64,000 nt of DNA from Lingula anatina. Taxonomy: Eukaryota; Animalia; Brachiopoda. The notes beneath the pieces are model-generated. The model had not been told where the DNA came from. It saw only the letters and a list, made by a program, of their open reading frames with translations, and ran no database searches. Below are positions 1 to 60,930 of the stretch, piece after piece; within the stretch, counting starts at the first letter, position 1; every line of letters starts with the position of its first letter. A program made the position numbers and the translations under genes. The stretch is taken from the NCBI GenBank assembly GCA_051362555.1, contig CM120643.1, forward strand, positions 310,001 to 374,000, given 5' to 3'.

Positions 1-3000
1 TCATTCTCAGTCTTCTTGCCATTGCTATGAATGGACACAACATGGATTCCGTTTCCTTTCACAGTAGTACACGTAATGGCAGCGATCTTCCCGTCGTCTG
101 CTACTTTGATTTGTGAAAACATATCCGCCAGTTTCAGTCCGCTATCACAGTCCTGAAGTTCTTGAGTATCGGCCGTGTGCTCACTGTCTCCTGCTGCTGG
201 CGAGTGCCATTTTGTCAGTTTTGTTGGACTTTTTATTTGACCGTCTTTTTCAACAGCTTGATGGACAGTCCAGAAGTCTGCACCAACCCACGCTCCTCCA
301 AGTATAGCCTCTCCCTCTCCATGCAGACACTGGACATCATGGCCGCCCTGTGGGTCAATCAGGCTCAAGCAGTGGCGGCGGTCTTCCTCACGAACGGCGC
401 TCACAGCTAACAACTTTGAATCCTTTCTGAACTCCAGCACACAGTGACGGGTAGGGAAGAAGTCTGTTGGCTTTAACTCGCGCGCAGAGGCCCTTGATAC
501 GAGGACCCTGTGGCCACAGAGAACAAAACCGTCATCATTCCTTCTGAATATCAGTAACACGATGCTGGCGTTTTGATTCTTTTCCCGCTTTTCTCCTATG
601 ACGGCGACGTAGTTGTCATCAGGAGATATCGCCACGGGGAACCGGTCCCCGTCTGGAATGTCCAGGCCTTTAAGGACTTCAAGTGATACTTCTGATTCCC
701 TGATATCCAGCATTGTTTTTCTTTGGTCTGAAAACCCCAGTTTGCCGAATTCCGTGTCTAGAGTAAGAAAAATGTAGGATTGAGACAGGGTGGAGTTGAA
801 TGGTAGTCCCTGAACAAGAGACATTTTATCAAAGTAAGTCGGTTTGGACACTGATAACTCCTTCCCACTTTCTTTGCTTTGGATAGTTTGTATACAAATT
901 GTCCTGAAACACCCCTGGGTTGACCCGTTGTTCTCTGCACTACCAGCGATAATGACACTAGTGGTCCCTGCTACAACGCTGCTTCTGCGCGTGACACCGG
1001 TTGCGATAAATGTGACACTGTCCAAACGACAACTCTTCGTGTCATAAACCCCTCCAAAAATATCTCCGTCATCAGCCATTGAACAATTTCGCCCCTTATC
1101 TAGCAAAACAATCACCTTATCGTCTCTATTGGGTATGGGGATTGTGACGGGAGGGTAAAAGCACTGACCCTCACTGACCTTCAGATACTGTGTCGTGTTC
1201 TCCTGTACACTCCATCCATCCGGGGATGTCGGGAATGTGACGTCATCAGGGCACTGCGCGGTGGATGTGGTGAAAAGAAGGCCCCGCAGACTTTCCTTAT
1301 CCTGGTCCGCCATCTTGAAGTGCGATATTTGAGGCATGACGACCCTCTGGAAACTGGGCCCCTTGATGTCTATCTTCTGCACCAGAATCTGAGGCGGCTG
1401 CACGCCGGGAATGTATGTTGCCAAGGTTTGTACTCGTCTTGATTGAGACTGAAAAACAAGGTAATAATAATAATAATAATAATAATGGTGATGATGATGA
1501 TGATGATAACATATTCAACGAGTAGGTCTACTTTGAAAAACTAACGAAAACTAACTAAAAATCCTTGCTTACTTTTATTTAGTCTTTAATAATTTTTCAG
1601 TTAGCGAGCGATTTGTAGTTTTTATAGAGAGAGTGAATAAGTTTGTTAATACAGCCTTATTTCACAAATGAATGTTCTTGCAAGATACAGCGTTTTCCGT
1701 CCGTTGTGCAAATGAAATATACTGTCGCAAATGTTGGGCCCTTCAAAACGCAATCTACAGTCGCAACTAACACAATGTACAGACTGTGCCGCACAGTGCA
1801 GATTTACCCGATGTGCTGACAACCGTCTTCCTTACGGTTCTCCTCGCCAGCAGTTCATATTCATGATCGACGCAAGGTAATATTGACATCCGGGCATTAA
1901 AGAAGTGTTTTGTGGGATTATCGTTTCTTTCACAAAGCTTAATAATCTGAGTGTTACGTCTCAGACGGCCAAGGTAGATCAGCGAACGATTTTAATAGAT
2001 TATCCAGTCAAGGATTGATTAATACATTATAGCAAACAAAAGAACTGCTGTGTTGAACTGCTCACATTCGTGTAAAATCAGTGAAACCACTGTGCGCATA
2101 TAAATTAACGGGTTGTCCTCGGCGGTGAGCACTTTCCGTCCACAGTGTAATTTAATTGACCGGGGTAAGACCTCGCCACGCACGAGTTTACTGACGCTAA
2201 GGTAACATTAAAGCTAGTGAACGGCCTTATTAACGCAGTAAGGGAGTTTATAGTGGAAATCAAACGCCGATGTCAGGGTTGTGAGACCTCGAGCGGTTAA
2301 TATTATCCATAACCTCGTGACTAGTATTAGTTTTCGTATTGTTTTTCCTCTTGTCTCCACTACCAAAGCAAGATAACTCTGATTATACTAGTACATGTCT
2401 GCAACCTGTACACGTGTTAAAATATTCTCGTTTGAACTTCTAGGAGGTAATGCTATGTATACTAAACAATTTAGAACTAAGGGACCGAATTTGACCTGAG
2501 GAGCAGAATAGAGCCATAACATACGCCGTGGTGATTGTTGAGACACGAGTTACTTGGTGGCAACACATACCTTAAGAGGTCTAAAACCTGTAATAGAGAG
2601 TAAACCTCTAACGCTGGTATTTAATTGATCTAATCGACCTCAGGCCAGGCCGTTACCTGAGTAGCAGTGCACAATGCTCGTGAATAATTTAACAAATTGA
2701 TGCTAACAAATTTTAGAAGTTAACCCTAACAAATTTAACCCTGTCCGCAATGAGGCTATCTCGGAACAGATACACCAATAAATGCTGTCGTTGTGCATAT
2801 GCAGTCATCCGCGTCACACACACAAAAAAATTTTAAACATCCATGCCCAAACATAAGATAAACCGCGATTTGGAGGCAGCTGCGGATGGATTAGCAGCAT
2901 CCCATATCTTGGGTCCGCGCTGGCTTCACTGATAACAGCTTAATAGAAAAATTAAATTGAAGTCAATTGTAACATTTGACCCTAGTAGAATACAGGATTT

Positions 3001-11279: not shown

Positions 11280-11852
11280 CATCTGAGACGCGGTGGAGTT
11301 CTGTATATAAAAACTTATTTTACTTTCGTTAACGAATAGATAAATATATGGTTAAACAAGCCAGAAATTCCCAGTAACACAACAGTAAAATTTTATCACA
11401 GGCTGTTTACATTAATCCGACTGGTGTGGGTAAGTTGTACGGAAGGATGGAGGGAGATATCAGATGAAGAGAGGAAACACACCTGGAAATCTTACGTACT
11501 TCTAGGAAACTCTCACAGAGCTGGTGAGTTCCGTTTCGGAGGCGAGAGGGGCACATATACTACATCTGAGACGCGGTGGAGTTCTGTATATAAAAACCTT
11601 ATTTTATTTTACTTTCGTTAACGCATAGATAAATATGCTGTTAAACAAGCCAGAAATTCCCAGTTACATAATAGTATAAGTTTATCACAGGCTGTTTACA
11701 TTAAGCCGACTGGTGTGGGTTAGTTGTACGGAAGGATGGAGGGAGATATCAGATAAAGAGGGGAAACACACCTGGAAATCTTACGTACTTCTAGGAAATT
11801 CTCACAGAGCTGGTGAGTTCCGTTTCGGAGGCGAGAGGGGCACATATACTAC
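11280..11852 (+). repeat. Tandem direct duplication, about 283-290 bp x2
   Basis: catctgagacgcggtggagttctg...gggcacatatactac starts at 11280 and again at 11563, with high identity. A (GAAA)n run precedes it at about 11205-11244. Confidence 0.9.
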
Positions 11853-12807
11853 AAATTTCTCTCTTTGAACATAAAAAAATCATGTTTTATTTCAGTGAAA
11901 ACCACACCCCAAAAACGTGTTCTGCGAAGAAACGAAATTTTAAAAATTGACCACAAAATCCCTAGAGTTCTGTATAGAGCCCTAGGGACACTCCACGCGT
12001 TTGAAGAAATCTGTGTAAACAATAGTTAGTACCCCCTCACCTTTGATTTCTGAAAAAAAATCACACCAATGGTCCCCTCTGGAAATTAGAATTTTGACTA
12101 GTTGAATTACAGTTTTAAAACGTACGAAATATCACATTTCGCCCGCAAAATATCAGCGGGACCCGATCAACCTGCCAAAGGGGGGGGGGGGGGGGTTAAG
12201 GGTCGTCTTTGCATCCTCGGCCTGTCCTAAAAACCAGACCCCCCTTCAAATAATCCTGAATACCGAACTAGTTGCTATGAAAATATAGCTGTAACCCTGC
12301 CTAAGAGAAGTTAACATCACTGTGGTTACAGTAACTTACTGATGTTTTACTCCTCAGTGTGATAAGTATTACTATCAGTAGTCACATGGCCTTATGATGG
12401 CGACGGGGGAGGGGGGAAGCACATGCCCTGCATCACAGCTGTAATTATAGGGACTTCATCTTGTTATGCTGGATACGACATAGATATAGACATATGCAGT
12501 GTCTATGTATTCTTCTACAAAGCTAAACAATTGTAATGCTCAAAATCTATAGAGCAGATACGCCTAGATGTATTAGTACACGTATGTGTTCTGGTATCAA
12601 AGATGAGAACTTCACAGCTGCGGGTAAATTATCGCAATGTGCAGCAGTAATCCATTGGATCTTAAATACTCTTATCCTACCACCGTCAGCAACATGATAG
12701 CGAGTATCAGCAGTCTCTTCCACTGCTGTAAACATCTACCAATCACACGTGTAGTTTAAATAGCGCACACGCTTATTTATTTTTTTTTCTGATTATATCA
12801 CTCAGCG

Positions 12808-16734: not shown

Positions 16735-17548
16735 ATGATGAAGCTGGTAGTCCTCACACTCCTCGTGGCCGCAGCCACCGCTGTCTACGTGGACAGGATC
16801 GGCAGTTATGGTCGCCATGGATACGGGTACAACACCCGCGGCTACGCCAAGAAAGGCTACGGCTACCAGATTGCAGGCCGCCCTGAGGATTACATCTCTA
16901 GGTAAGTAATGAACATTGTGAATTTTTGAATTTTATGTTAAAATTATGCTGCCTGTGGATATCCCGTAAGATCTTTGTGGAAAATTTACTTTTTGGGCAC
17001 GTTCTCCATTATTTGATTTATCATTTTGAATTCCTGAGATAAGTTCAGAGGAATAAGAGCGTGCAATATATTAAATTGCTCCGGAAAATGGTTAAAACTG
17101 TTTTCAAGACGTCTTGTTAAATACGTACTATACATGTAGTTATACGATACTGCCTATATGTTTCTCTCTCTCTCTCTCTCTCTCATCTTCAAAAGGGATA
17201 GTATTCTATCTTTAAAAAGACAGTAAGTATCACCATGTATTGCAACCCAGTATAGATTGGTCAGATACGTATTCATAACGTAACGCTTCTTTCTCCTCTA
17301 GCTGCGGCGGCAACGCTTACAGCACCTACAACGAGGACTGCTGTGGCGGAGTGATCTACAACAGACGCTACCAGGACTGCTGTGCTGGTCACCTGGTCAT
17401 CAACAAGCCTGCCCAGTGTCCAGGTCTTCCCCGCGTCCACGTCAACTACGGCTACAACAAAGGTTACGACGCTGGTTACGCTCCCAGATACGACGCTGGT
17501 TACGCCCCCAGATACGACGCTGGCTACGGCTACGGCAAGAATTATTAA
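16735..17548 (+). CDS. Secreted Gly/Tyr-rich protein with galaxin-like Cys repeats (137 aa, 2 exons)
   Basis: Exons 16735-16901 (donor GTAAGT) and 17302-17548 (acceptor ttctcctctAG), joined in phase 2. Signal peptide MMKLVVLTLLVAAATA, then a GY-rich arm, core CGGNAYSTYNEDCCGGVIYNRRYQDCCAGH and YDAGYAPR repeats. Strong C-ending codon bias. AATAAA at 17706. Confidence 0.92.
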
Positions 17549-19744: not shown

Positions 19745-22422
19745 CTATTTTATTCTTCGGTTACGTCTTGCAGGCACAACTCTATTTCTTGCGGCACGCG
19801 CAGCGGTTTTATAGGCCTGGAAGGACTCGAACTCAAGGACGCAGCGTTTGGGCTTTATGTAACCAGGAATCCATAACCAGGATGCCATGTCATTTATTTC
19901 TGTCATGTTGGTATCGGGTCCCACGGCCACGACACAGATGACGATTCCTGAAACCGAACAACAGCACCAGTATCGTATAGCGTCATCTTTTATGATATAT
20001 TGATAACAAAGTGAAGGAAAGGAACAACTTAATGGAACCCAATTTGACAATAGTCAGAACTGAATGTTGCCTAGAATAAAGAGAAAACCAAAAGATATCT
20101 GTGACTGATACATGTAGATGGATGATCTTTTGGTTTATTAGTCAAATGATACATGTATGTTTCCTTTTCCCTATTTTCTATGCTTCGAAACAAATTGAAA
20201 TCTACCCGTGCTCTTCATAGCGTTTGCCTTTGGGACAGGGTTGCCCCCTTGATTAGATTTTCCGTCTGTTGTCATCCACACAAGTCGCTTGCCTTGAACG
20301 CCAAGTTCGTTCTGGCAGAGTTGCAGTCCTTTCTTAGTGTTTGTTTGAATTCCTGCAATCGCAAAGAAATTTTGTTGGTTTCAGTACCAATGAACAGCTT
20401 ATCTTTAAGGTAAGGCCTTAGATCTTTTACGATCCTATCTTGTTGGGAGAATGCATCAAGTTAATATAAATGGTGTGCTTTCTGAACTCTCACAGCTTTT
20501 ATTTGGTGTTCCTCAGGGGAGCGTGCTTGGCTCGCTTAAGTTTTGTGTTTACACGTTACCCCTTGGAGCAATTCTGCGTTATCATAAGATAGGTTACCAC
20601 TTTTATGCCGATGATACCCAGGTGTACACATCTTGTAACATCCATGATCCAGCATTGTCTGTGAACACAATTGTTGATTGCATATCAGACCTCAGAGGTT
20701 GGCTCATTTTAAACAAATTGAAGATAAATGATGGAAAAACGGAATTTTTAGTCATTACTCAACCCCACAACAAGGGCCTTGCTCACAACTTGCAACTTAA
20801 AATTGGAGCTAGTATGGCATTTTCCTCCCCCCATGTAAAAAATTTAGGAGTATACTTTGATTCTACACTTTCAATGGACAAACAGATCTCCAACATCACA
20901 AGGTCTTGTTTATTCAACATTCGGAATATTGGCACCATAAGGAAACATATGAATCAATCATCTGCTGCTACTGTTATACACTCATTGGTAACTTCCAGGC
21001 TAGACTTTTGCAATTCTGTATTATATGGATGTCCAGATGATAAGATCAAAAGATTACAACGCATCCAGAATATCTCAGCACGGCTTTTAATGCTACAGCC
21101 TAGGGATTGCCATATCACTCCAATTTTAAAGCATCTGCACTGGTTACCAGTTAGGGCCAGAATTTTATTTAAGGTTTTAGTTTTTACACATGCTGCTTTT
21201 TATAATCTAGCTCCACCATATATAACTGATCTAGTCAAACATTATAGCCCTCAAAGATCCCTGAGGTCTGGTGACAAACTTTTACTGAAAGTTCCAAAAT
21301 CAAGGTTAAAATCATATGGTGACATATCATTTTGTGTAGCTGCACCAGTAGAGTGGAATAAGTTGCCAATTTTTATTAAACAAATAGAATCACAAGAATC
21401 TTTTAAAAAGGAATTAAAAACTCATATTTTTAAGACATTTTATTCATGAATTTTAAATTTTACAATTTTAAAGAAACCTTGGATTTTTTACTTTTAATTA
21501 CTGTTTATTACAATTTAGTTTAGCTCTTATTTATATAAAATATATCTTAACCATTTTTATCTATAAACTTCTTTGTATTTTATGTTGTATAGTCTATTGA
21601 ACATTTTATGGATTTTAGACTTGAAATAAATATATTATTATTATATTATTATCTTTTATCCGTGCATTGTTTCTGTTCGGATATCATGTTCGCAAAATTA
21701 TGCATATGCATATATAAAAAGTTACCTTTCATATTCCACGAGCCAAACGGTGGTGCATATGAATCTTCACGAAAATTAAAATGAAATATTATTAATCTCT
21801 CAATTTACAATTTACAGTTTACCCACTAGCTTCAGTGGGCGCGACAGACATTTAAGCAAATTAAACTAAACGCAATTTAGCAAGAGTCCCCTCGGAGTAA
21901 GATCGAAACTGCTAGTACGATAGGGTTTCGGAAACCCAGTCTAAGACTGTTTTTAATATCGTACCTTTTTTCGGCACACTTGCAATTGCCATATAGTTCT
22001 GTGAAAAGAGCCCATACGTGCCCAAACCGAAAATAACTTTAGTAACATCTTCGTCAGAGAATCGCACCAACCCGATCCTGTGTCTAATAGGATGGACGCT
22101 GTCCGCAGCTGGCGTGTTGTCAATTATGAAAAGGGTATCCTGAAGGAGAATGAATGTAGTAAAGGCTATATCAGCTTAGTAATTTTCAGCGACAGTATCA
22201 CAGCAACGGTTCCTTGTCAAATTGTTAAAAAAAGCAATTATAAGTGGCAGTTTAACTGTGTCACCAACCTAGTTTATTTAGCATTTACAAGTGTAAGAAT
22301 ATTTTATTTCATTCTTCATGATCAATTTTCAATTAAAATTCATTCACAATTTCAAAGTATTTACAAGTGAAAATAAAACACAATGTTGATCAAAAATGAC
22401 ACAATATCAGTTTATGCTTTTC

Positions 22423-32470: not shown

Positions 32471-35400
32471 TCAATCTTCAGTGTAGTCATCCGGGTATTT
32501 GATGGTGTAGTTCCCGGGACACGTGGGGGTGGGGCAGCAGGTCCCGGGGGCTGGCGGCAGGAGAGAGCAGGCTGGTGGGAGTTCCCAGTACAGGCACCTG
32601 CATGGACAACAACAAATAGAACAGAAGACAGGGATAAAGGTATGTGCTGGACTTGCTTTAATCAGTACAGTGAGTGATAAACACAAATCAATTTACAAAC
32701 TCCGAATATCATTCATTCTACTGTGTTTAATGCAATAAAGAGACATGAAGTGTTTCCGGACAAAATATGCTTTTACTAATGCCCTTTTCATCTTTGCCGT
32801 GTAAGGAAAAATTTTTGTACTAATGTTGCCTTCTTTGTTTTTATGTCATCTAACATATTTTTAAATAGTTTGTTTAGAAACACATCCACAAACCAGGCTG
32901 ATATCTACTCCCTTATGTTGACGCTTACCTGTTTACGCATGCGTACTGGCCGTCACGTCCGCACACACATTTATGTTGACAACCATCATACCATTTATGT
33001 CCTTCGTCATATAATGTTCCCTTGTACATGCACTTCCTCGCTTGAAAATGTGAATGGTGTTTTTATTATTTTCACATCAACAGATTTAAAGGTACATACG
33101 AACCGAGCATCGGTGGAGCGTGGATTCCCAGTAACACATGTAAACCACTTCTACTAGATTCTTATATGACTCAAATAAATTTGACATGCCAAGGGATAAA
33201 CTGAATAGATCACTCGATCAGCCATAAAAGACCTTTAGACTGCTCCTTTCTTTAAATTTATGGTTGTAAATTTAACCTACTTCCGTGACCTACTTTCCTG
33301 CCCCATTGGCATTACAGCTTAGAATACCAGCAGAAAAATCTGTTCAAACATCATTTTCGGGTAAAATTAAACAATGCCTTTTGGTAATTCTCTTAGTTAT
33401 ACTACTTGAAACTATATGCTGGCATTTGGTTGGTTTCTGTGAGAAAAAATTGACTTTGTACGTATCTTTAAACCTGAATTAAAGGCAAAAAAACGTTTGT
33501 CACATCACCGGTATGGTGTATCATCAGCAGAGGGACACATGTTAGAATCCGCTTACACTGGGCGTTTATTACCATTCGTTCATCATTGACGCCCTTCCCA
33601 ACTCAGTCACTTCTTTCTTTACTGGTTCGTTTATTCTTCTCTTTTTGTTAAAAGCATGGAAATACATACTATACACACTGTCATATGCTGCAATCGCATG
33701 CTCTTTCTTACATTCCTTATACCATTCATTTCAATACATTCGTCACCACTTTATGAGATATACCAACAAAGGCCTAGCAGTACTTACATGGTGTTACAAT
33801 GGAGGCTGTTGCTGGGGAAGCAGTGGAGGTTGCTGCCAAGGTTGTCTGAGATACTAATGGGTACAGATACAGGAAGATAATTAATGTTATAAGTTGTATA
33901 CAGAATAGATTCGCGCATACAGAACTACACAGACGTGCATCAGTATCTATGTACAGCATACTGACGTACATGTAGGTCATTTTATTGAAATCCAATTTAA
34001 CATACAATACACGTCAAGAATTCAAGTAATAATATGATGAGATTGCAGTGGAAAGAGACAGAGAGTTCTAAAATATTACTTCTAATTACCTCCGCCAAGA
34101 AGGTTATGTTTTCACCCCTGTTTTTCTGTTTGTTTGTCTGTCATCAACATAACTCCACAAGTTATGGACCGATTTTGATGAAATTTTCAGGGTAGCTCAG
34201 AAATGGGTCAACTTAGAAGAGATTAGTTTTTGGTGGTGATCTGGATCAATAATCAATCAATAATCAATAATAATAAAAAAATTGCTGCCTTGGCGAAGGT
34301 CAGCGCTCTCGGAGTGCTTTTCTAGTTCTATTTTATAATAATGTTTTTCGTAAATCTTAAATAGCTTTATCTGGATGTTGCCAACTTCTATCTTTTTACG
34401 TTAATTTCAATCTTAACTGCCCCGCTGATAAAATGAAAATCTGTTAGTAAATCCTGGCGAATTAGTATTCATTTTCTAAGATGTAACACCTACCCATATC
34501 CGCGGTCCAGGTGGGCGCAATGGATGTGGTGGTGCCATCTATCGACAAAAAGTTAAGTTTTGTGATAACCACAGAATAATGTAACATGATCCGCAATTAT
34601 AGAAAGCTCTGCACAGAAATGAGTGGAAGAATCAGTGAATAAAGATAAAAGACTTTTTTATACTGTGGGAAATAAGATCAGAATAAAATACGGATAACTG
34701 GAACTCTTCCTGTATGAACAGAATTAGACCAGTGAAAATGCTTTCAAAAGTCTATCACTCACAAGTAACGCCACCTGCCACGTTATTTATTCTTTGTTCA
34801 TTTATTTATTTTAATGAATTTATTCATTTTAATGAATTAAAATTTTACAGGTATGTATCGCAAATAATATACAAGTAGACTTTGCCTTTGAAAAACAATA
34901 GGCTGTAGGCCTGACGTACCTTGAATGCACTGAAGCTTCTTGCAGCACTGGCCTGTGCTCGAGACCAGAGAACAATTTGGGGGAATCACTGGAAATGACG
35001 GGCACCTGCAACGATATGAATACCACTTTTCGTTCGTAGCAGGATATTTCCAGAGCCGTTTTGTGATGTAATTATGGTCATGGGAGATAAAAATCATAAA
35101 ATCCTATATATGTATAACTAAATCAAAGTTTATTTCTCTTTTATGTGTTAAGTAAGATGGAACAGACCTTTTCGTTTGTGGAAGCTTTGCAATATGGAAT
35201 CTAATTTTGGTCTTTAAAGTCTTTAAAGTTAATTTTACTATTTAGCATTTGGTCTTTAAAGTCTTTAAAGTTAATTTTACTATTTAGCATTTGCACATAC
35301 TTTTATACTGAAGAAAGAATCTACAAGGGGAGGGCACCTTCATGTACAAATATATTACTATTTGCATTATAATTAATGTTTTTTAATAATAAAAATTAAT

Positions 35401-37303
35401 AAATAAAAATAAAATATAAAGATTTCTAATAAACCACACAAGTTCATGTCATGGGTGAGAGTCTGTACTTACATCCTGCTGCAGTGGTAGATGCCGAGTG
35501 TGTCGTCTTCACAAAGACAGTTGTAATTAATAAAACTAAAAAATAAAGACTTCTAATAAGTTCATGTCATGGGTGAGGGTCTGTACTTACATCCTGCTGC
35601 AGTGGTAGATGCCGAGTGTGTCGTCTTCACAAAGACAGTTGTAATTAATAAAACTAAAAAATAAAGACTACTAATAAGTTCATGTCATGGGTGAGGGTCT
35701 GTACTTACATCCTGCTGCAGTGGTAGATGCCGAGTGTGTCGTCTTCACAAAGACAGTTGTAATTAATAAAACTAAAAAATAAAGACTACTAATAAGTTCA
35801 TGTCATGGGTGAGGGTCTGTACTTACATCCTGCTGCAGTGGTAGATGCCGAGTGTGTCGTCTTCACAAAGACAGTTGTAATTAATAAAACTAAAAAATAA
35901 AGACTACTAATAAGTTCATGTCATGGGTGAGAGTCTGTACTTACATCCTGCTGCAGTGGTAGATGCCGAGTGTGTCGTCTTCACAAAGACAGTTGTAATT
36001 AATAAAACTAAAAAATAAAGACTACTAATAAGTTCATGTCATGGGTGAGGGTCTGTACTTACATCTTGCTGCAGTGGTAGATACCGAGTGTGTCGTCTTC
36101 ACAAAGACAGTTGTAATTAATAAAACTAAAAAATAAAGACTACTAATAAGTTCATGTCATGGGTGAGGGTCTGTACTTACATCCTGCTGCAGTGGTAGAT
36201 GCCGAGTGTGTCGTCTTCACAAAGACAGTTGTAATTAATAAAACTAAAAAATAAAGACTACTAATAAGTTCATGTCATGGGTGAGGGTTTGTACTTACAT
36301 CCTGCTGCAGTGGTAGATGCCGGGTGTGTCGTCTTCACAAAGACAGTTGTAATTAATAAAACTAAAAAATAAAGACTGCTAATAAGTTCATGTCATGGGT
36401 GAGGGTCTGTACTTACATCCTGCTGCAGTGGTAGATGCCGAGTGTGTCGTCTTCACAAAGACAGTTGTAATTAATAAAACTAAAAAAATAAAGACTACTA
36501 ATAAGTTCATGTCATGGGTGAGAGTCTGTACTTACATCCTGCTGCAGTGGTAGATGCCGAGTGTGTCGTCTTCACAAAGACAGTTGTAATTAATAAAACT
36601 AAAAAATAAAGACTACTAATAAGTTCATGTCATGGGTGAGGGTCTGTACTTACATCCTGCTGCAGTGGTAGATGCCGAGTGTGTCGTCTTCACAAAGACA
36701 GTTGTAATTAATAAAACTAAAAAAATAAAGACTACTAATAAGTTCATGTCATGGGTGAGGGTCTGTACTTACATCCTGCTGCAGTGGTAGATGCCGAGTG
36801 TGTCGTCTTCACAAAGACAGTTGTAATTAATAAAACTAAAAAATAAAGACTACTAATAAGTTCATGTCATGGGTGAGGGTCTGTACTTACATCTTGCTGC
36901 AGTGGTAGATGCCGAGTGTGTCGTCTTCACAAAGACAGTTGTAATTAATAAAACTAAAAAATAAAGACTACTAATAAGTTCATGTCATGGGTGAGGGTCT
37001 GTACTTACATCCTGCTGCAGTGGTAGATGCCGAGTGTGTCGTCTTCACAAAGACAGTCGTAATCACAACCATCACTCCAAGTCTCCCCTGTCTTGTAAAC
37101 ACCGCCCTTATAGTAACACCCCACTAAATGACAGGATATATGTTAATTACTTGTTATTTTAAATTTAAATTTGATGTTAACTTTCATCTCGCATACACTT
37201 CTATTTCATTAAATTTTGACTTCATTGTACAAGTTATTATGTATGTTATTGCCAAAAAGGATGACAACTTTGTCCAATAATTTCCCATTAAAATTGGTGC
37301 AAA

Positions 37304-37336
<33 letters not shown>

Positions 37337-40300
37337 GTCGAAATGTTTGGCAAATACCTTGAACGGCCAACAACTACCGCTACTAAACCACACCAGGTCA
37401 AGGCGTTCCACTTTAAACAGGGCGGCCATTGTCTTAACTCTTTCAATTTTATTTTTTAGATAATCATTACTAATGTCCAATCTGACTTTTTATCTTATCC
37501 ATAAATATCTTTTTATAAACATAAAAATTATAGCAATAATGTATGTGACCGTGATCAGTCGACATGTCTTACGGAAAATGACATCTAAAAAGGAGCAATT
37601 GCAGGAAAATTGAATCTCGAACTGCAAACCGAAATTGTCGACAAGCACAAATTGTAGAGTGATGTGTTTCGGCCTTGCTTGAACCAAACACGCAAAGAAA
37701 TTCTCCTTTTTAGATAGGTTACTAGTACATACCACATTTCTGGATGTTACAGTTCTGGTACTCCCTGGCAGAACCCACGCACGGGTCGCCGCCATTGGCT
37801 GGAACGGGGTTGTCACATGATCTGTGACGCCACCTCGTGCCACCACCACATGACCTGCTACACGTGCTCCAGTTACCGAACTGCGACCAGCCGCCATTAA
37901 CTTTAATGTAGGAAATAAGTCGCCTTGTGAGAGTGTCACACTCACTGTGCAATTGTTAGTGTTAGTTTTTTTATCAGTTACCATGTTATATTGACATCTG
38001 ATCTTGCCAACCAAAGTCAAAAACTGCCTCCTGTTTTACAAGAGCATTGTTCATGCAATGGAACATTAGTCGACTTTCACCTTATTTCACTATTTTCAAC
38101 CTGTCAGGCAAACGTTATCGCGGTTTTTAAGAGCTAATTAAACCGCACCTAGAAATGTTCCAAAAATCCACAACTGTTCAGAGGTGCGCTTTTGGAAGGT
38201 AACAATTTTCATCTTTAAGCCATGTCAGATTTTAAAGTAGCTATACTTACTTTTCTGAATGTCACAATGTTTCCCCGTCCACCCGTCATTGCAGTGACAT
38301 ATGTAGTCAGAGGGAGATGTAGCGTTACAACTGCCGTGAATACAGACCTGGCCTTCACAGGGATCTGTTGCTAAAAGAGATGGAACACTTGTTTTTACAA
38401 ACATGCCATGTCTCCGGCAACCAAGAATCAAAGTTATATTTTATTCGTTGTTTGGAAGAAATAAAAAAGGGCAAAGCTGTCGCAGATCGTTTACGAAAAA
38501 ATATCTTAAACTCCATATTTCAGCCAAGTGTGTTTTGAGAGACAATTTCGCCCCTTGTGTTTGCCCTTCTATACGTACACGTACATGTATTTGTAAAATG
38601 GATCTACCTATACACTCGCAGTATAACCAAAAGTGTTTTAATGCATACTCCCTATATGTATTTCCCCAACTGAATTTTGGTGAAGTGATTTGTGTCAATC
38701 TTCCCCTGTTTTAATAAACTTTTACATATATAGTGCCCTCGAAATAGAGGGCATTGGTGTGTATTGCTGGCAACAGAAATGTACTGATACGCCTTTTCAA
38801 TGAAAACGTGACCATTGGCATAGAGCAGTAGTTAACGCGTCCTTAGTTACCTGTACATGTATGGTTATCCGCCATCAGTTGGTACCCTGCTGTACACTGA
38901 CACTGGTAACTGCCCGCCGTGTTAGTACACGTGTGAGCACAGCCGCCATTTTTTGTTTGACATTCGTCAATATCTGCATATAAAATATGATAACATTTTG
39001 CTTAATTACTTGATATTCACTTATTCATGTCACACAAGAGCTTGTTTATTAAGTGTATATTATCAACAAAATACAGAAATTATCTTGGCTTCAGCGTCAC
39101 TTTTATTTGCCCATTAACATGGTTTCCGAATTAATCAAAACACAAAACTGTAAATGGCCAAATTTAATAACACGTTATGGCCAAACAAATAATTTATAAT
39201 AATAATATAAATATCCGTCTAGATGTATCTATTTTGTTTACCTGTGCAGGTGTGATTATCAACATGAAGTAAATATCCCTGGGGACAGGTGCAGAGATAG
39301 CTCCCAGGTGTGTTAGTACACAGATGACTACAACCCCCGTTATTGCTTCCACACTCGTTGATATCTGGAGACATTGAACATGTTTTATACTTCGTCTAGA
39401 ATGATACATGTATTTCAGAAAGTGACATAACGTTTCATAAAAACACCAACCCTGAAAACTTGTGCTAGTTTCTACTCAGATAAACCATGGAAGTAAAACT
39501 CCCAGGATATATTGGTATAGGCCTAATATAACACCTTTTATACTTCGCTTAGAGGGATATTTCAGAAACTGAAATAACGCTGAAAAAAAAACCACCAAGT
39601 CTGAAAAAATGTGCCAGCGTTAAATTGTCCAGGCACCTGTATTTCGCTGGCTCTTGTCACCCTTAATTATATTTAGTTTCTAGAAACACTCAGATATACC
39701 ATGAATAATATAATATAATATAATATAATATAATATAATATAATATAATATAATTACCGGTGTCGCATCTCTGTCCTTGGTAACCAACTTCGCATGTGCA
39801 GGCATCGGGTTTGGTGCATGTACCGTGAACACAGCCAGGAGAGCAAATTGCTGAAATATTTTATATTCACAGAACATTTCAATAGATACTATATAAAACA
39901 TGATGATATCCAGCACTGCAGAATTCTTGCAAATAAAGACCAACATTCGGTAAAAATCAATGCTATACCAACTCAAATGTTCAATTTATCACCTAGTGCA
40001 CAAGTAATAGTGTAGATGCCGACAGCACATATCCTCCAATGTCTTATTCCTAAAGAGCATCAACCACAGACCCATAGCCAGCAATTTCTAAAGGAGGTTC
40101 TTTTTCGGAAAAAAGTGAACCTTTTAATATGAAACCTTGATGTTCCTAGATAAAATTTTACCCAGAGCGTACTTTTTCCCAGCAAAAGACCCCCCCCCCC
40201 CCTGGCCAGGGGCATAATCGACATGCCCATAAAATATGATCATCGGGCATTCGTCGCAAAGGGAAAATGAAAGTAAAGTGAGATCGCGACGGTCACACTT

Positions 40301-41638
40301 AACGCGCACTTATTGATCTCCATGAATAGTATTTAATTATTTATAATAAAAAACGGTCTTCATTTGGTCTTCATTTGGCTATACAAACATGTGGCGCAGG
40401 ATTCTCCCGTCTGTTTCCATCCAGGACAGCACTGCTGGACTGCGTAATACTGGGTCTGTTGTCTCGGCTCTGATACATACACTGTCACAGGCCTGGAATA
40501 CAGTACTAGGGTGTTCATTTGGCATTTTATCGAGAAGAATAAAAACAACAACAAAACAAAAAACAAAATACGAGACTCCGTACAATTAAATACACTGTGT
40601 GCGATCCTGATGCAATTGCTAAAACATTCACTGGAACTTGTGGTTACGATCAATACACAATACTTCATATAATATTGGAGTAGGTGACAACAAGGCCTCA
40701 TTGGCAGATGCAACTAGAAAATCACACAGAAACCGCAGACTCTCGCCAAAGGGAACTATGTTTCACTATTATTTCACTAAACTCCCTTTTTTTATGAATT
40801 TGTTAAAAAAAAAATACCAACTTTGTCCTACCTCGCAATGGCGAGGTATCATATGCATGCATTAAATTTTTTGGGATCCAGATGGTGATCTAGATTATCA
40901 CCAAAATTTTACCACTTCTAAGTTCGAGAATTTTTGCTGTTTTGTATTATTATTATTTCATACCGGCATACTTTATGCTTTCTCCTCCGTTTGTCTGTTT
41001 GCCACCATAGAAACTAAAGAGGATTTTGATAAAATTTAGCATGCTACAGCAGAAATTCTCGAACTTAGAAGTGGTAAAATTTTGGTGATAATCTAGATCA
41101 CCATCTGGATCCCAAAAAATTTAACACATCATAACGCGGTCGGCCTACTTTACATAGCACAATACATAACACAGCATACATGTAATAATAAATAAGAAAA
41201 GACATCCTCACTGGCCATCCCGTATTTACCTATAGCGGGTACATCTGCTCCAGAGATTGCACTTGGTGGTGTATTTCTGATACTGCTGTCGACTGACCTG
41301 AGCATAAACCGTCACTGTTCTGCTTCTGGTCTCGGTGCAGACATTCCTACAAAGAGGAGCTTTAAATTGTTATTCATTAGACATCCAGACAACGTAGAAA
41401 GTTTGCCTGAATTTCATTGGACCAGGAACCAACACAAGACACTGACAAGATCAAGATATCAGAGAAGAAACATGCGACGGCTTGCTGGTATGGAGAACTG
41501 GTGGTCATTAATATCTTTGTATTGCCCAAACTATGAGAAGATGGCAGTATCCACTTCTTACCCAGTCAGAGAGTTTGCGTATCCAATTGAAAGAAAAATA
41601 AAAACCAGAAAACCAAGGGTGCTTTCCATAGCCGTCAT
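32471..41638 (-). CDS. Secreted multidomain ECM protein: SP-EMI-EGF-cbEGF-cbEGF-EGF-TSP1-VWC-Thr/Ala linker-VWC (491 aa, 14 coding exons)
   Basis: Exons: 41638-41562 (signal peptide); 41346-41230 and 40492-40389 (EMI: NVC...[11 protein letters not shown]...CCPGW); 39850-39758 (EGF); 39364-39242 and 38973-38851 (DINEC/DIDEC Ca-binding EGF); 38370-38251 (EGF); 37900-37733 (TSP1: [17 protein letters not shown]); 37123-37009 and 35005-34920 (VWC); 34538-34494 and 33853-33788 (linker); 33040-32929 and 32597-32471 (VWC, TGA). All introns are GT-AG, phases are compatible and the total is 1476 nt. Confidence 0.92.
34086..34325 (+). mobile_element. Helentron-associated non-autonomous element (HINE/DINE-1-like)
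   Basis: Subterminal inverted repeats acctccgccaag / cttggcgaaggt, a (GTTT/GTCT) microsatellite, 3' hairpin gcgctctcggagtgc and a CTAG end. A sister copy lies at 63496-63678. Confidence 0.8.
35440..37057 (-). repeat. 118-bp tandem array (about 14 units) containing half an exon and a 5' splice site
   Basis: acttac (minus-strand GTAAGT) occurs at 35467, 35585, 35703, 35821, 35939, 36057, 36175, 36293, 36411, 36530, 36648, 36767, 36885 and 37003. Units are nearly identical, and the last overlaps coding exon 37123-37009. Confidence 0.97.
40862..41124. repeat. Perfect 72-bp inverted repeat with 119-bp spacer
   Basis: 40862-40933 is the exact reverse complement of 41053-41124. Confidence 0.93.
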
Positions 41639-49152: not shown

Positions 49153-49748
49153 TTAACATGGCTCCGCAATACATACCATCAGGCCGTGACAGGAAATGTA
49201 TTAAATAGGGATTTAAATAATAATAATACTTCAATGAACTGTAAAATGTCAACATATTACAGGCTGTACAAAACTAATTTTACACACATACACGCACACA
49301 CACACAATACAGAACAAAACAAAACAAAAACAATGAAACAAATAAGACAGGAGGAATAAGAGGCTAATACGACTATATTGTTTGTGATGGGACAGATGTC
49401 ATCCCTATTATCAATCTGGCCACTGAGGCCACCCATTGTGTAGTCTTAAAGTTTATTAGGTGAATACAGTCTTAGAGTTTGTTAGGTGAATCCAGTCTTA
49501 GAGTTTATTAGGTGAATCCAGTCTTAGAGTTTATTAGGTGAATCCAGTCTTAGAGTTTGTTACAAGTAGGTAAATCCCCAGTCTTAGAGTTTGTTAGGTG
49601 AATCCAGCCTTAAAGTTTATTAGGGGAATCCAGTCTTGGAGTTTGTTAGGTGAATCTAGCCTGAAAGTTTATTAGGTGAATCCAGTCTTGGAGTTTGTTA
49701 GGTGAATCCTATCTTAGAGTTTGTTAGGTGAATCCAGTCTTAGAGTTT

Positions 49749-53461: not shown

Positions 53462-53900
53462 TTTTTTTTTTCTTTTTTTTTTTTTTTTTTTTTTTGAGAG
53501 AGAGAGAGAGAGAGAGAGAGCTCAACATAAATGTCAGCTTTTTATTTATTTTTTTTTTATCATTTTTTTTTTTTTTGAGATAGAGAGAGAGAGAGAGCTC
53601 AACATAAATGTCAGCTTTTTATTTTTTTATTATTTTTTATTATTATTATTATTATTTTTTTTAATTTATTTTTTTTTTTTTTGAGGGAGAGAGAGAGCTC
53701 AACATAAATGTCAGCTTTTTATAGTTAAAACTATAAACTGAGGCAGCAAAGCAGAGACCAAGGGCTCACAAACCTATAGCTAGGCAGTGTTTAGTAAGGG
53801 GACATAGAGAGAGAAAATGTCAGCTTTTTATAGTTAAAACTATAAACCGAGGCAGCAAAGCAGAGACCAAGGGCTCACAAACCTATAGCTAGGCAGTGTA
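53462..53900 (+). repeat. Compound local repeats: (T)n(GA)n-ctcaacataaatgtcagc x3 and an about 83-bp direct repeat
   Basis: Read directly. aaatgtcagctttttatagttaaaac...gctaggcagtgt occurs at about 53706 and 53815. Confidence 0.8.
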
Positions 53901-54162
53901 TAGTGAGGTGACAGAGGGAGAGGGGGGGGTTCTCGGTTCAGATGATACTCTTTTACAGATAACAAAATATCCTCATTTCCTCAATGTCCAGTAGGTTTTC
54001 TTGCTCATACTTCAGTAACAGTATGTCAGAACAGTTTACGCATGAAACGTCTGGTGCTATGTTGACACAGAGGACAATATTGATTAATATTTCAGAATGG
54101 CACTGTTTTACGAGAGGGATGTCCCCATGCACACACAGATAGATGCACACGTGTACATGCAT

Positions 54163-55413: not shown

Positions 55414-56171
55414 ATGACCACCAAGTGCAGCTGGACGTGTCTCATGGACAGAAGTCACCTCAAGTGGCTCCTCCTAGTGGTGGTCACGTTATTACTCATC
55501 CAGTACATAGGAAACCTGTTGGTTTATAAAAACTTCTACAATGTCACACAGTACTTCAATGGCGTCTACTGGCTAGGACAGGCAGTGTCTGGCTCTCTGT
55601 ATGGTGTCCACCAGAAGAAGATGGCACACATATTGAAAGTCAATGGGACACTTACAACACTAGGCACAAATACAACAAACTCAAACACAACAGTTGGTAT
55701 GGATTTACAGACGACGATGCTAGTCCAGCCGAACGTTACAGTGACAGTTGACACCTCAACGTCAAGTGGCAAAGATGGTAATTTATGTCCAAGTACCCCA
55801 CCTGGACTCAGTAAGTAGCCACACACTTAGGTGGCCTTCACAACAGATGATCCTCAGATACACTGATCTGCAGATCCAATATGGTGGACCCTACATGAAA
55901 GAAGAGCCAACTAGACCGCTGATGGTCTCCCTGCCTCTGCACGTGCCATTAAATGGATGAAGTCACGGGGGGGGGGGTTTAATTGCCAGATTCCAGCAAG
56001 GACAGTGCTCGTGGAGGCAGTGAGACCATCAGCAGATTATAGCCATATCTGATCTACAGATAAGTAGATCTGAGTATCATCTGATGTGAATGCCCTCTTA
56101 GACTTAAAAATTGTGTTGGACATAGTCCTATGACAGAATTATCAAATTATCTTATTTATTCATTTACTTGT

Positions 56172-56202
<31 letters not shown>

Positions 56203-58788
56203 TCTATCTATTTATTTATTTATTTGTTTATTTATTTATTTATTTATTTACTGTATTTATATTTGGGGGTGGAATACTTGCAACATTTTGCAAGTACATC
56301 TTGAATTTTTGGTTGAAGGTCTTTCACCAACTTGACATAAGTCAGAAACATTCTGCTCTGCTGCCCTCTGGGTTTGACTGCTATTGAATGCCTTAAGTTT
56401 GTATGAATTTTAGCAGTTTTGAATACTTTGGCAGTGGAAATATCTAGAGTGAGTTCAAGTGTTGGGTGAACTTATTTGATGTGTTATGTCAGAAATACAT
56501 ACTAGTAAAAAGATTAACGTTAAGGAATTTGTTACAAGTGGGGATGTGTTCAGTTTTAAATAGTTTACTTCTTGAAGACAGTTGATAGTAAAATCAGTGA
56601 GATATTAAACAGTTTTAAGAAGCTATCATTTTATTCTATTCCAGAGGGACGTATAGTACCAGACACGACGGCAGCCACATGGGAGACACTTCAGGCCAAA
56701 TACAGCACTGTGGAGCCTGGGGGGCGGTGGAGACCCAAGGACTGTACGTCCCGCCATCATGTGTATATTGTGATACCTTACAGAGACAGAGACGAACATC
56801 TACGCATCTTGCTCAATAATCTTCATCCTTTCTTACAAAAGCAGCAGTTGGATTATGGGATATACGTGGTAGAACAGGTCGGTGTAAGGGTTCACCAGTA
56901 GGATGTGATATGAGGGCGATGCTGATTGCAGTTTACTAGATATTCTCTCTGTACTTAATCTGTGCATCTTTAGTATCAAATTCAATTTTTCCATGGTTTC
57001 CATTTATGTCCACAGCTAATTATGTGTTAAACTTGCCATGTAAAATATATTTTGAATGCTGCAATGTTGGCAAAGACACTTGTTCATGTTTAGAATTATG
57101 TTAATTTTTGTAAATCAAAAGTCTCTTTGTTAAATCATTATATACGTGAAGTATACAGTAGGAGTCAAAAGTAGTTACAGTATTTACAAAATTCTATAGA
57201 GTCCAGTTGCTGTCATTGTCAAAACATATGACGTCTTACTTTCTATAGCTAATTAATACATTGTATATGGATTACTTATCAACTTAGCCCTTAGCAGATA
57301 ATCCCAGCTCAAACTCTGAATTCCTTGTCTCTCCACAGGCAGAGGGCAGCCATTTTAACCGCGGGATGTTGATGAATATTGGGTTCATAGAAGGTCTCCG
57401 CGTGTCGAATTACTCGTGTGTAATATTCCACGACGTGGACCTGCTTCCAGAAAATGACAATAATTTTTACTCTTGTCCTCAACAACCAAGGCACATGTCT
57501 GTTGCCATTGACAAGTTTAACTACAGGTCTGTATGCAACTGTATGGGAATGATCATAATTTTCATTTAATGTGATTATTTGATGTAATAAGTATGGTTAT
57601 TTTTACATCACTTGTTCAGTGAGCCCGGAAATATACCATATGAGTGAGGAGTATAAACTGGATGTTAGGATTTTTGAAATTATTATGCAGATTAGATACC
57701 AGAGCACTCTTTTATGTTTGAAGGTAATTGATGGGATTAATGAACATCTAAATGTACATCTTGTCTTAATATTATATATACACATAAAGAATGCAGTGGG
57801 AAAGGCAGTTGAAATTATCTCTTTTTTGTTGTGTCAAATTATTATTTCAAATTTTTCAATGATTTCCAGGCTTCCATATGCTTCATTATTTGGCGGGATC
57901 ACAGCACTGAGAGTCGAGCAGATGAAGAAGGTTAATGGTTACCCCAATGTCTATTTTGGCTGGGGCGGAGAAGATGACGACTTCTCAGACAGGTTTGTAC
58001 TGCTTTAGATTTACAACTGTTTTTAAGCAGACACTTGATTATTTATTCTTCATAATCTCTGCTTGAGTCAGAGAACATACGGAAAAAGAGGATATGGACA
58101 GCATCTTTTTTTATTTTCTTACTTGCATTAAAACAAAGACAAGTAAAGTGCTTCACTAAACCCTGAGTGCTTTTGATTTCTTAACTCCTTGAAATGAGAT
58201 GTCTTTGCCAGGAAGATATTTGCTGCTTTAAATCTATCAGAATATACACACATTTCTGAGATGATGGTTTATTTTAATTTTTTACAGAGTGCGTTCTAAG
58301 GGTTACCAGATAACACGTTATCCAGCAGAAGTCTCACGCTATAAGATGATCAAGCACAATAAGGACAAATCCAACCCGCCAAACCCTGTCAGGTAGAAAT
58401 TGAAACAAACTGCCGAGTTTCATTAGGTCATAGATATTGTTTTATCTTCATAGCACCCTTATGAAAAAGTCCTATAGGATCCTATAGGAAATTGGGCCTA
58501 TTTCCTATAGGATAATATAGGATCACTAGGGCAGCTACCAGCATTATGTTAAATAAAAGAACTCTGAGACATATCACCAGATACAATACAAAGAAAATTT
58601 TGGGTTTAATGGAGTCAGAAATGTTGAGAAATCTGTTGAAATGTTGCAGGTTCTCACTGGTACGCACAGCTAAGTCTCGCTTCAAAGTGGATGGGTTACA
58701 AAATATTCAGTACGAGCTGGTGAAGAAAGAAGAGCGCCCTCTTTACACGTGGCTCAATGTCAAAATCGATGAGAAGAAAGTGCTGCAG
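55414..58788 (+). CDS. bre-4: GT7 family beta-1,4-N-acetylgalactosaminyltransferase (bre-4/B4GALT-like), type II membrane protein
   Basis: Exons 55414-55810 (TM WLLLVVVTLLLIQYIG and N/T-rich stem), 56645-56877 (IPYRDR, YVVEQ), 57339-57526 (FNRGMLMN, FHDVDL, PRH), 57870-57992 (FGG, WGGEDDD), 58288-58392 (YKMIKH) and 58650-58788 (DGL). The last exon either splices onward (GTGAGT) or reads through to TAG at 58824. An upstream exon may extend the N-terminus (acceptor at 55375). Exact orthology is uncertain. Confidence 0.93.
55830..56097. mobile_element. PIF/Harbinger MITE in the first coding intron of the glycosyltransferase
   Basis: TIRs ggtggccttcacaacagatgatcctcagat / atctgagtatcatctgatgtgaatgccctc, with a TTA TSD. 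Confidence 0.85.
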
Positions 58789-59539
58789 GTGAGTGGAGCA
58801 TCTTGTGCTCTCAGCGCCATCTAGGAATAGGTTTTGGAGTATGGTGGTAGGCAGCCCCATTTGTCAAGCACTTCATCCATGTGGTAGTTTGAAAATTCCA
58901 TATACAATCATAAAGTTCAAATGTTCAAGAGAGCAGAATTTGTTTTCAGCTGAAGAGATGCCACAGGTGTGAGACTGCAGGAAATATACATTTTTTGTTT
59001 GTTTGTTTGTTTGTTTTACAAAGACATCTGATTGCTGTGTGATGGTCATATTATGTCATTTTTTATCTTTTTCACAAGTGTGCAAGCTGTCAAAAGTAAT
59101 AAAAATGATCCAGATTGCTGTCAAAGGTCTTCAATTTTAGTTTGTCACTGTGAACTATCTTAACTGGAAGGGGGGGTTTGGAAAAAATCTACTCTTCATA
59201 TTGTGAAAGTGGTGACAAAAAAGGGATGACCCCATAGGCTCCTTTACATCAAATAGCTTGGTTGAATTTCTATGTTAAGAAATACATTTGTAATATACAA
59301 TGGTGTCAGGCCCGTCTCTGCCTAGGGCTGTTTGGTTATGTCTGGCTAGGACAGAGTCTGTCTTGGTCTGTCTAGGATTGTCAGATTTTAAGTTAATCAG
59401 TACATTGTTACTGGACTATTTTTTATCAAAATACAAAATATTTCAACTTTATACAAGTAATATCTCACTCAGCAAAGAAAAAGTTGAAACAGTTGTTTCA
59501 GATCTCAAACAGAGTTCAAAGCTGCAGTTAGATTTAACT

Positions 59540-60930
59540 TTTTATGTACAGACACAGATGTGTCTGTACATATAGCCATCATCTGCGTCTGTCGCCGTCG
59601 TCGCTGTCGCCGTCGTCGCCGTCGTCGCCGTCGCCGTGCACTTTTACCGATAACACGATAAATGGAAAACTGTTTTTTCTTTTGGTATGAAACTTACAGA
59701 ACTGATGAATATTCATAATACGCAGGTCAAGTTCGAAAATCAGCATGATCGGGTCACTTTTAGGGAATTTATGCTGTTTTTTCACTTTTTTCAGCATATA
59801 TGCAGCACTGATAACACGATAAGTGGAAAACCATTTTACCTTTTGGCTTGAAACTTACAGAACTGATGAATATTCATAATACGCAGGTCAAGTTCGAAAA
59901 TCAGCATGATCGGGTCACTTTTAGGGAATTTATGCTGTTTTTTCACTTTTTTCAGCATATATGCAGCACCGATAACACGATAAGTGAAAAACCATTTTAC
60001 CTTTTGGCTTGAAAGTTACAGAACTGATGAATATTCATAATACGCAGGTCAAGTTCGAAAATCAGCATGATCGGGTCATTTTTAGGGAATTTATGCTGTT
60101 TTTTCACTTTTTTCAGCATATATGCAACCCCGATAACACGATAAGTGGAAAACCATCCTACCTTTTGGCTTGAAACTTACAAAACTGATTAATATTCATA
60201 ATACACAGGTCAAGTTCGAAAATCAGCATGATTGGGTCATTTTTAGGGAATTTATGCTGTTTTTTCACTATTTTTCAGCATATATGCAGCACCGATAACA
60301 CCATAAGTGGAAAACCAATTTACCTTTTGGCTTGAAACTTGTAGAACTGATAAATATTCATAATACGCAAGTCAAGTTCGAAAATCAGCATGATTCGATT
60401 ATTGTTAGGGAATTTATGCTGTTTTTTCACTTTTTTCAGCATATATGCAGCACTGATAACACAATAAGTGGAAAACTGTTTTTTCATTTGGCTTGAAACT
60501 TACAGAACTAATGAATATTCATAATACGCAGGTCAAGTTTGAAAATCAGCAAGATCGGACAATTTTTATGGAAGTTATCCTGTTTTTTTTTTTTTTTTTT
60601 TTTTTTTTTTCAATTTTTTCAGCACTTTTATAACACCGATAACATGATAAGTGTAAAAATGTTTTTCCTTTCCTTGGATTGAAATTTACAGAACTGGTGA
60701 ATATTTATTATATGCAGGTCAAGTTTGAAAATTGGCATGATTGGACTATTTTTACAAAAGTAATGCTGTTTTTTTCCCTTTATTCAGCATACATGCAACA
60801 CTGATAACGCATTTTAAGGAAAACCAATCAGCCTTTTGTCTTGCAACTCACAGGAGTGATCAATCTGACCAGTATACAGATCAAGTTTGAAAATAAGCTT
60901 GATCAGTTAAGTTTTGATGAAGTTATTAGC
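59540..60930 (+). mobile_element. Helentron-type element carrying a 161-bp central satellite (about 8 units)
   Basis: 5' hairpin tgtacagacac-agat-gtgtctgtaca, a (GTC/GCC)n microsatellite, then units starting at 59650, 59811, 59972, 60133, 60295, 60456, 60639 and 60804. Degenerate related blocks continue to about 63490. Confidence 0.8.

Follow-up and report, generated by a model that had tools for sequence, protein, structure and literature searches.

Minisatellites at exon-intron boundaries

Tandem repeats whose first copy straddles an exon-intron boundary are known from lancelets and humans. The lancelet arrays, termed mirages, are tandem copies of exon-intron boundaries with units of 10-160 bp, many of them carrying AG/GT signals, and have homogenised inner units and divergent end units (PMC3087553). 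They are described in Adh3, troponin C, the globins BflGb6 and BflGb9 (a 157-bp unit at the 3' boundary of an exon) and PGBD5 (108 bp), and variation in their length is known (PMC3087553, PMC3902484). RT-PCR of globin and Adh3 points to normal splicing, and the same authors propose that the exonic part of a mirage unit might turn into a real exon (PMC3087553). Human donor-spanning VNTRs include F7 IVS7 (37 bp), CBS IVS13, 6-16, LMNB2 (100 bp) and PDGF (81 bp); the first donor is used alone in F7, LMNB2 and PDGF and together with two others in CBS and 6-16 (PMC1557585). Internal tandem repeats in human duplicated genes also include boundary minisatellites, which activate cryptic sites and give rise to alternative transcripts (PMC2812944).

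The array described here lies in a 64,000-nucleotide stretch of Lingula anatina DNA (the window) and by its sequence structure appears to belong to this class of mirages or boundary-spanning minisatellites. The first copy spans a real exon-intron boundary, the copies run head-to-tail, the donor is reiterated within the intron, and the inner units are homogenised with a divergent terminal copy. The lancelet arrays share the boundary-spanning units, the similar unit size and the contrast between inner and end copies, and the human VNTRs share the placement of the first unit over the boundary and the identical donors reiterated downstream. The Lingula array differs from the lancelet cases in its phylum and in that every unit has a donor together with a new in-frame acceptor, giving 13 complete pseudo-exons; it is known from DNA sequence, whereas RT-PCR suggests normal splicing for lancelet globin and Adh3. 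The human VNTRs, in the accessible part of their description, are presented as pseudo-donors only, with no acceptor and in-frame exon per unit (PMC1557585), and the repeats in human duplicated genes differ in being supported by transcripts and in mostly creating new introns within a repeat (PMC2812944). A literature search covering few subscription journals found no published splice-site minisatellite array in Lingula, and the accessible part of PMC10078293 contains no matching case. The unusual property of the Lingula array would be that each unit forms a complete in-frame pseudo-exon with an acceptor of ordinary strength.

Dscam and DAZ carry tandem exon arrays composed of whole exons with their own acceptors, workable introns and proven inclusion. 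They and the Lingula array both repeat exon-like units in one gene, the Lingula unit being half an exon and a 55-nt spacer. Measured against such cassette arrays, acceptor, donor and frame are present in each Lingula unit, whereas the inter-unit intron is 55 nt long with a 34-nt distance from donor to branch-like site, compared with 257 nt for the shortest of 23 introns in the window.

The host gene and anatomy of the array

The features of the locus, all on the minus strand, are as follows.

32472-41346 (-): host gene, 13 exons traced by joining exons and Pfam searches, 465 codons without a stop
37009-37123 (-): host exon of 115 nt and phase 1-2, coding for the first half of VWC-like module 1 with Cys 1-5 (Pfam VWC E 0.0059, below cut-off); the exonic part of the repeat derives from its last 55 nt
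37003-37008 (-): first donor GTAAGT, taken as authentic from its position
35473-37008 (-): array of 13 donor-to-donor units, 118 bp each (119 bp in units 3 and 5), 98% alike (Tandem Repeats Finder and unit alignment; multi-copy contigs in DNA run X2)
36954-37008 (-): unit 1 intron-like spacer, 55 nt, with donor, branch-like CTTAT, T tract and AG
36891-36953 (-): unit 1 pseudo-exon, 63 nt, in frame, with an R>K variant; the remaining 12 are spaced at 118/119 bp
35473-35535 (-): unit 13 pseudo-exon, 63 nt
Starts at 36890, 36772, 36653, 36535, 36416, 36298, 36180, 36062, 35944, 35826, 35708, 35590 and 35472 (-): identical copies of GTAAGT
35006-35472 (-): last part of the intron, 467 nt long and probably the ancestral intron; its junction with the array is also a loose end in DNA run X2
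34920-35005 (-): following real exon of 86 nt and phase 2-1, coding for the second half of VWC-like module 1 with Cys 6-10

The traced product is composed of a weak EMI domain, an EGF domain, two calcium-binding EGF domains, a further EGF domain, TSP1, a VWC-like module, a Thr/Ala linker and a second VWC-like module. EGF, calcium-binding EGF and TSP1 score over the Pfam cut-off, and EMI and VWC are weak. This domain composition suggests a secreted protein, which is as far as the "secreted matrix protein" of the preliminary description can be carried. Both VWC-like modules contain 10 Cys, the number conserved in VWC domains (PMC10326224), and the array occupies the phase-2 intron that splits the first module into two five-Cys halves. 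The profile matches of the half-module exons (E 0.0059 and 0.0015) are both below cut-off, so that the VWC domain first proposed is probably best termed VWC-like. Ten homologue clusters were looked up; six are named, all six of them molluscan, and two of the ten are named VWFC by UniRef. One homologue weakly matches the CCN3 VWC chain 5nb8 (E 0.0012). Protein searches with the host exons did not list the gene's own annotated product among the matches, which is weak evidence in itself.

Tandem Repeats Finder places a repeat of period 118 at 35440-37063 with 13.7 copies and 98% matches, and a 27-mer from the unit occurs 14 times in the window compared with 0 times in 100 shuffles; a scan of metagenome contigs with the 27-mer gave 0 matches. 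Fourteen identical GTAAGTACA donors are present on the minus strand, from 37008 to 35472, and delimit exactly the 13 in-frame units of 118/119 bp that had been described. All 13 units are composed of a spacer of 55 nt (56 nt in units 3 and 5) and a 63-mer, the extra base of the two longer units being a T inside the T tract, outside the 63-mer. The 63-mers are without exception stop-free in the host frame and of phase 2-2, in keeping with the phase-2 host intron. As to variants, units 1 and 8 show R>K, unit 6 shows L>P and unit 8 also has one silent change. Unspliced read-through from the exon into the spacer reaches a TAA stop at the second codon. In all of these details the preliminary description proved accurate.

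The likeness of the 63-mer to the real exon, described earlier as a near copy, can be stated more precisely, as 54 of its last 55 nt are identical to the host exon 3' end, and sequence from the intron start makes up the remainder of the unit. A G/A difference 50 nt before the donor distinguishes the host exon from the units. The unit therefore reads as a candidate duplication of sequence on both sides of the 5' splice site; intron and exon meet at a short ATT motif common to both, which is legible in the sequence and from which the mechanism is deduced. The terminal copy equals the spacer sequence over the first 33 nt, after which an insertion and several substitutions occur, and at the corresponding place the acceptor AG is missing, as first reported. 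Without the array the intron would measure 467 nt, within the range of the 23 window introns. At spacer position 39, unit 13 (35590-35473, -) and the terminal copy share a T>A change, and a C>T change is common to units 5, 10 and the terminal copy. These shared variants may be the trace of exchange between units.

Several other features of the window were recorded. Two tandem paralogous four-exon genes (30975-29222 (-) and about 23590-19750 (-)) have signal-peptide-like starts, duplicated upstream regions and a DSSGS motif reminiscent of a vWA metal site; Pfam gave no match on two of their exons. The intron of the second paralogue holds, on the opposite strand, a LINE fragment with a 346-codon reverse transcriptase ORF (20409-21449 (+), Pfam RVT_1 E 8.9e-09). 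At 16736-17548 (+) a small two-exon gene encodes a secreted-looking Gly/Tyr-rich protein, possibly of shell or cuticle, in which a galaxin-like repeat scores weakly (E 0.0005); its coding sequence includes a 24-bp repeat at 17465-17528. A six-exon beta-1,4-galactosyltransferase / bre-4 gene lies at 55442-58790 (+) and has AGAG tandem acceptors at 56644/56646 and 58287/58289; a galactosyltransferase exon neighbouring the host gene shows 99% identity to a named Lingula anatina protein. The stretch 1-1440 (-) is long and coding-looking, is interrupted by several breaks and shows no evident introns. Further tandem repeats are located at 11280-11853 (289 bp, 2 copies), 49442-49748 (26 bp, 11.5 copies), 53706-53922 (109 bp, 2 copies) and 59646-60775 (161-186 bp, about 6 copies; GTRAG occurs four times on its minus strand).

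Splice signals of the pseudo-exons

An acceptor matrix was built from 23 window acceptors, with leave-one-out scores used for comparison. The unit acceptor scores 7.2 bits, better than 12 of the 23 authentic sites. Two AGs located 14 and 17 nt upstream, which had been raised as a caveat, carry little weight with scores of -4.0 and -5.1 bits. The branch-like "ctcac" element pointed out earlier stands at a distance of 17 nt from the donor of its unit; more suitable is the branch-like CTTAT, whose A is placed at +34 from the donor and 21 nt before the AG. With an ordinary acceptor, a normally spaced branch-like motif and a donor identical to the real one, each 63-mer is predicted to satisfy simple exon definition. 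A hairpin between the donor and the branch-like motif was considered as a silencing mechanism and rejected, the fold z values being 0.09 and 0.41 against shuffles.

The 34 nt between donor and branch-like site in the spacer can be set beside human extracts, where about 50 nt is needed and 35 nt abolishes assembly (PMC6692369), a limit that may not apply to Lingula. Lingula introns have a mean of 787 bp (Lingula genome paper, supplement). Very short introns are spliced in lophotrochozoans other than Lingula, such as the annelid Capitella with a median of 57 bp (bioRxiv 10.1101/2020.05.07.078311), so that 55 nt is possible in principle. From unit 2 onwards the pseudo-exons are reachable with introns of at least 173 nt, and if adjacent units cannot join, the likely ceiling is 6 non-adjacent units, or 4 with a minimum intron of 250 nt.

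How often such a layout arises by chance was estimated by simulating 40,000 duplications across 20 donors of the window. Of these, 6.2% contained a median-strength acceptor, in 1.2% the unit was also in frame and open, and at the observed score the value was 0.3%. At one of the 20 donors the value was 13.9% and at each of the others it did not exceed 1.8%, which makes the 1.2% a rough figure, as does the small size of the matrix. Since the 63-mer is mostly exon 3' end, only about 8 nt needed to be open by chance. The in-frame open layout is uncommon, yet unremarkable for so frequent a class.

Readings of the array and their consequences

Probably the locus is a mirage minisatellite that leaves the transcript together with its intron: splicing would run from the donor at 37008 to the exon at 35005-34920, with the units skipped and stray use of later donors ending at the TAA. 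This reading is favoured because the unit consists of the last 55 nt of the exon and the start of the intron. A 118-bp piece over the exon 5' splice site would have been duplicated head-to-tail, intron being joined to exon at the shared ATT in the founding event, and then amplified to 13 copies. Unequal exchange or slippage would have amplified and homogenised the inner units, leaving the terminal copy apart. As the terminal copy lacks the acceptor AG, the AG may have arisen by a point change in the founding unit or have come from another allele; the heterozygosity of the species is given as 1.6% (PMC4595640). The first donor would win as in F7 IVS7, adjacent units would be unjoinable owing to the short spacer, and occasional use of a later donor would lead through the immediate TAA to transcript decay. 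Of the two options put forward in the preliminary description, decoy donors fit a known class and seem likelier than a nascent exon array, and the full ladder of 0-13 exons is unsupported in view of the short spacer, the lack of visible constraint and the lack of repetition in homologues.

A less probable reading, though the strongest competitor, is that the units are nascent cassette exons, with 1-6 non-adjacent 63-mers spliced into more than about 10% of transcripts. Every included copy would place a stretch of 21 residues, 3 of them Cys, between the VWC-like halves, and the share would depend on array length. The ordinary acceptor, the weak competing AGs, the identical donor and the kept frame all agree with it, as does the room for up to 6 units (4 if 250 nt is needed) when introns are at least 173 nt. 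There are partial parallels in the new splice forms created by exon-intron boundary minisatellites in human duplicated genes (PMC2812944) and in an exon called by a predictor, with no transcript support, inside the 108-bp repeats of lancelet PGBD5 (PMC3902484). The lancelet precedents, however, splice normally as far as they are described (PMC3087553, PMC3902484).

Homologues also argue against insertion at this position. In 150 homologues the next Cys follows exactly 3 residues on in 228 of 300 half-modules; 48 are without a Cys within 40 residues, mostly representing fragment ends in our reading. The half-motif is repeated 15-30 residues apart in 0 of the 150. The VWC bonding pattern comprises five disulfides, and a three-Cys insert would likely leave one Cys unpaired in a domain of this pattern. 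The number of added Cys is odd for each module, set against the ten of the domain (PMC10326224).

RNA reads were sampled from three of nine raw runs, belonging to three studies, about 6% of X15, 25% of X18 and 6% of X12. In these partial runs the array region drew no reads from X15 or X18, one pair from X12 and no spliced reads, with zero coverage of the junction to 35005. The unique 5' half of the host exon has zero RNA depth in the reads examined, indicating that the gene is close to silent there, and the missing support for cassette inclusion is to be read at that level of expression. The X12 pair spans about 36938-37069 unspliced, running from the exon through the donor and the spacer into the first part of unit 1; the X12 sample thus has at least one unit, and the pair may represent pre-mRNA or genomic DNA. 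A bolder form of the cassette reading, in which 1-6 non-adjacent 63-nt units are spliced in within the producing tissue and array length sets how many three-Cys modules can enter the VWC-like domain, is more doubtful still.

There is a slim chance that the array acts as an expression damper, with later donors used or the intron retained and the TAA sending a length-dependent share of transcripts to decay. Fourteen identical donors are available, translation of any extended exon halts at the second codon, human CBS and 6-16 make use of additional donors (PMC1557585), and the sole RNA fragment is unspliced across the first donor. That fragment is, however, a single one from a run in which the gene is otherwise silent and could be pre-mRNA or genomic DNA, and the pseudo-sites of F7 do not compete (PMC1557585).

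It is very improbable that the array is a functional ladder under selection, in which 0-13 consecutive exons are included and the 55-nt spacers behave as true introns. Donor, AG and frame are kept in 13 of 13 units and both indels spare the 63-mer, but the units are 98% alike, a uniformity attributable to recent amplification. Both indels fall in the longest T run, and even without a T-run bias the chance of sparing the 63-mers is 0.22. Substitutions affect 4 of 819 sites in the 63-mers compared with 5 of 715 in the spacers (p 0.74). Three of the four 63-mer substitutions are non-synonymous, as under neutral drift, and there is no synonymous excess; no coding constraint on the units is seen, on four variants that leave the power almost nil. 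The spacer is also far shorter than the window introns.

The array is real DNA and is multi-copy in a second DNA run. This run, X2, the one examined among seven well-matching DNA runs, differs in sample and study code from the best-matching run and could be the same animal filed again. Its 117-nt unit contig has a depth of 482 and a shared piece 613, whereas single-copy pieces have 66.5, 98 (the sum of two alleles) and 117.8; its contigs show the same terminal junction as the window. The resulting ratios of 4.1-7.2 and 5.2-9.2 can be compared with 10.3 and 11.6 expected from the window, with the proviso that contig depth does not equal copy number; at about half the expected copies, they hint that array length varies between alleles or animals. 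An assembly artefact is extremely improbable, for although no piece examined spans the 13 copies and the X2 depth suggests about half as many, the multi-copy unit contigs with their shared terminal junction, the X12 pair crossing exon, spacer and start of a unit, and the private variants borne by the units all speak against it.

Under the preferred reading, a mirage removed with its intron, the locus would be a brachiopod example of a known oddity. Its 13 near-identical in-frame pseudo-exons provide a natural test: either a preference for the first donor is enough to silence complete pseudo-exons, or mirages seed exons, as has been proposed for lancelet globins without transcript evidence (PMC3087553). 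If inclusion were true, the array would be a VNTR controlling protein isoforms via splicing, and in the bolder form it would be the birth of an exon from a mirage caught in progress.
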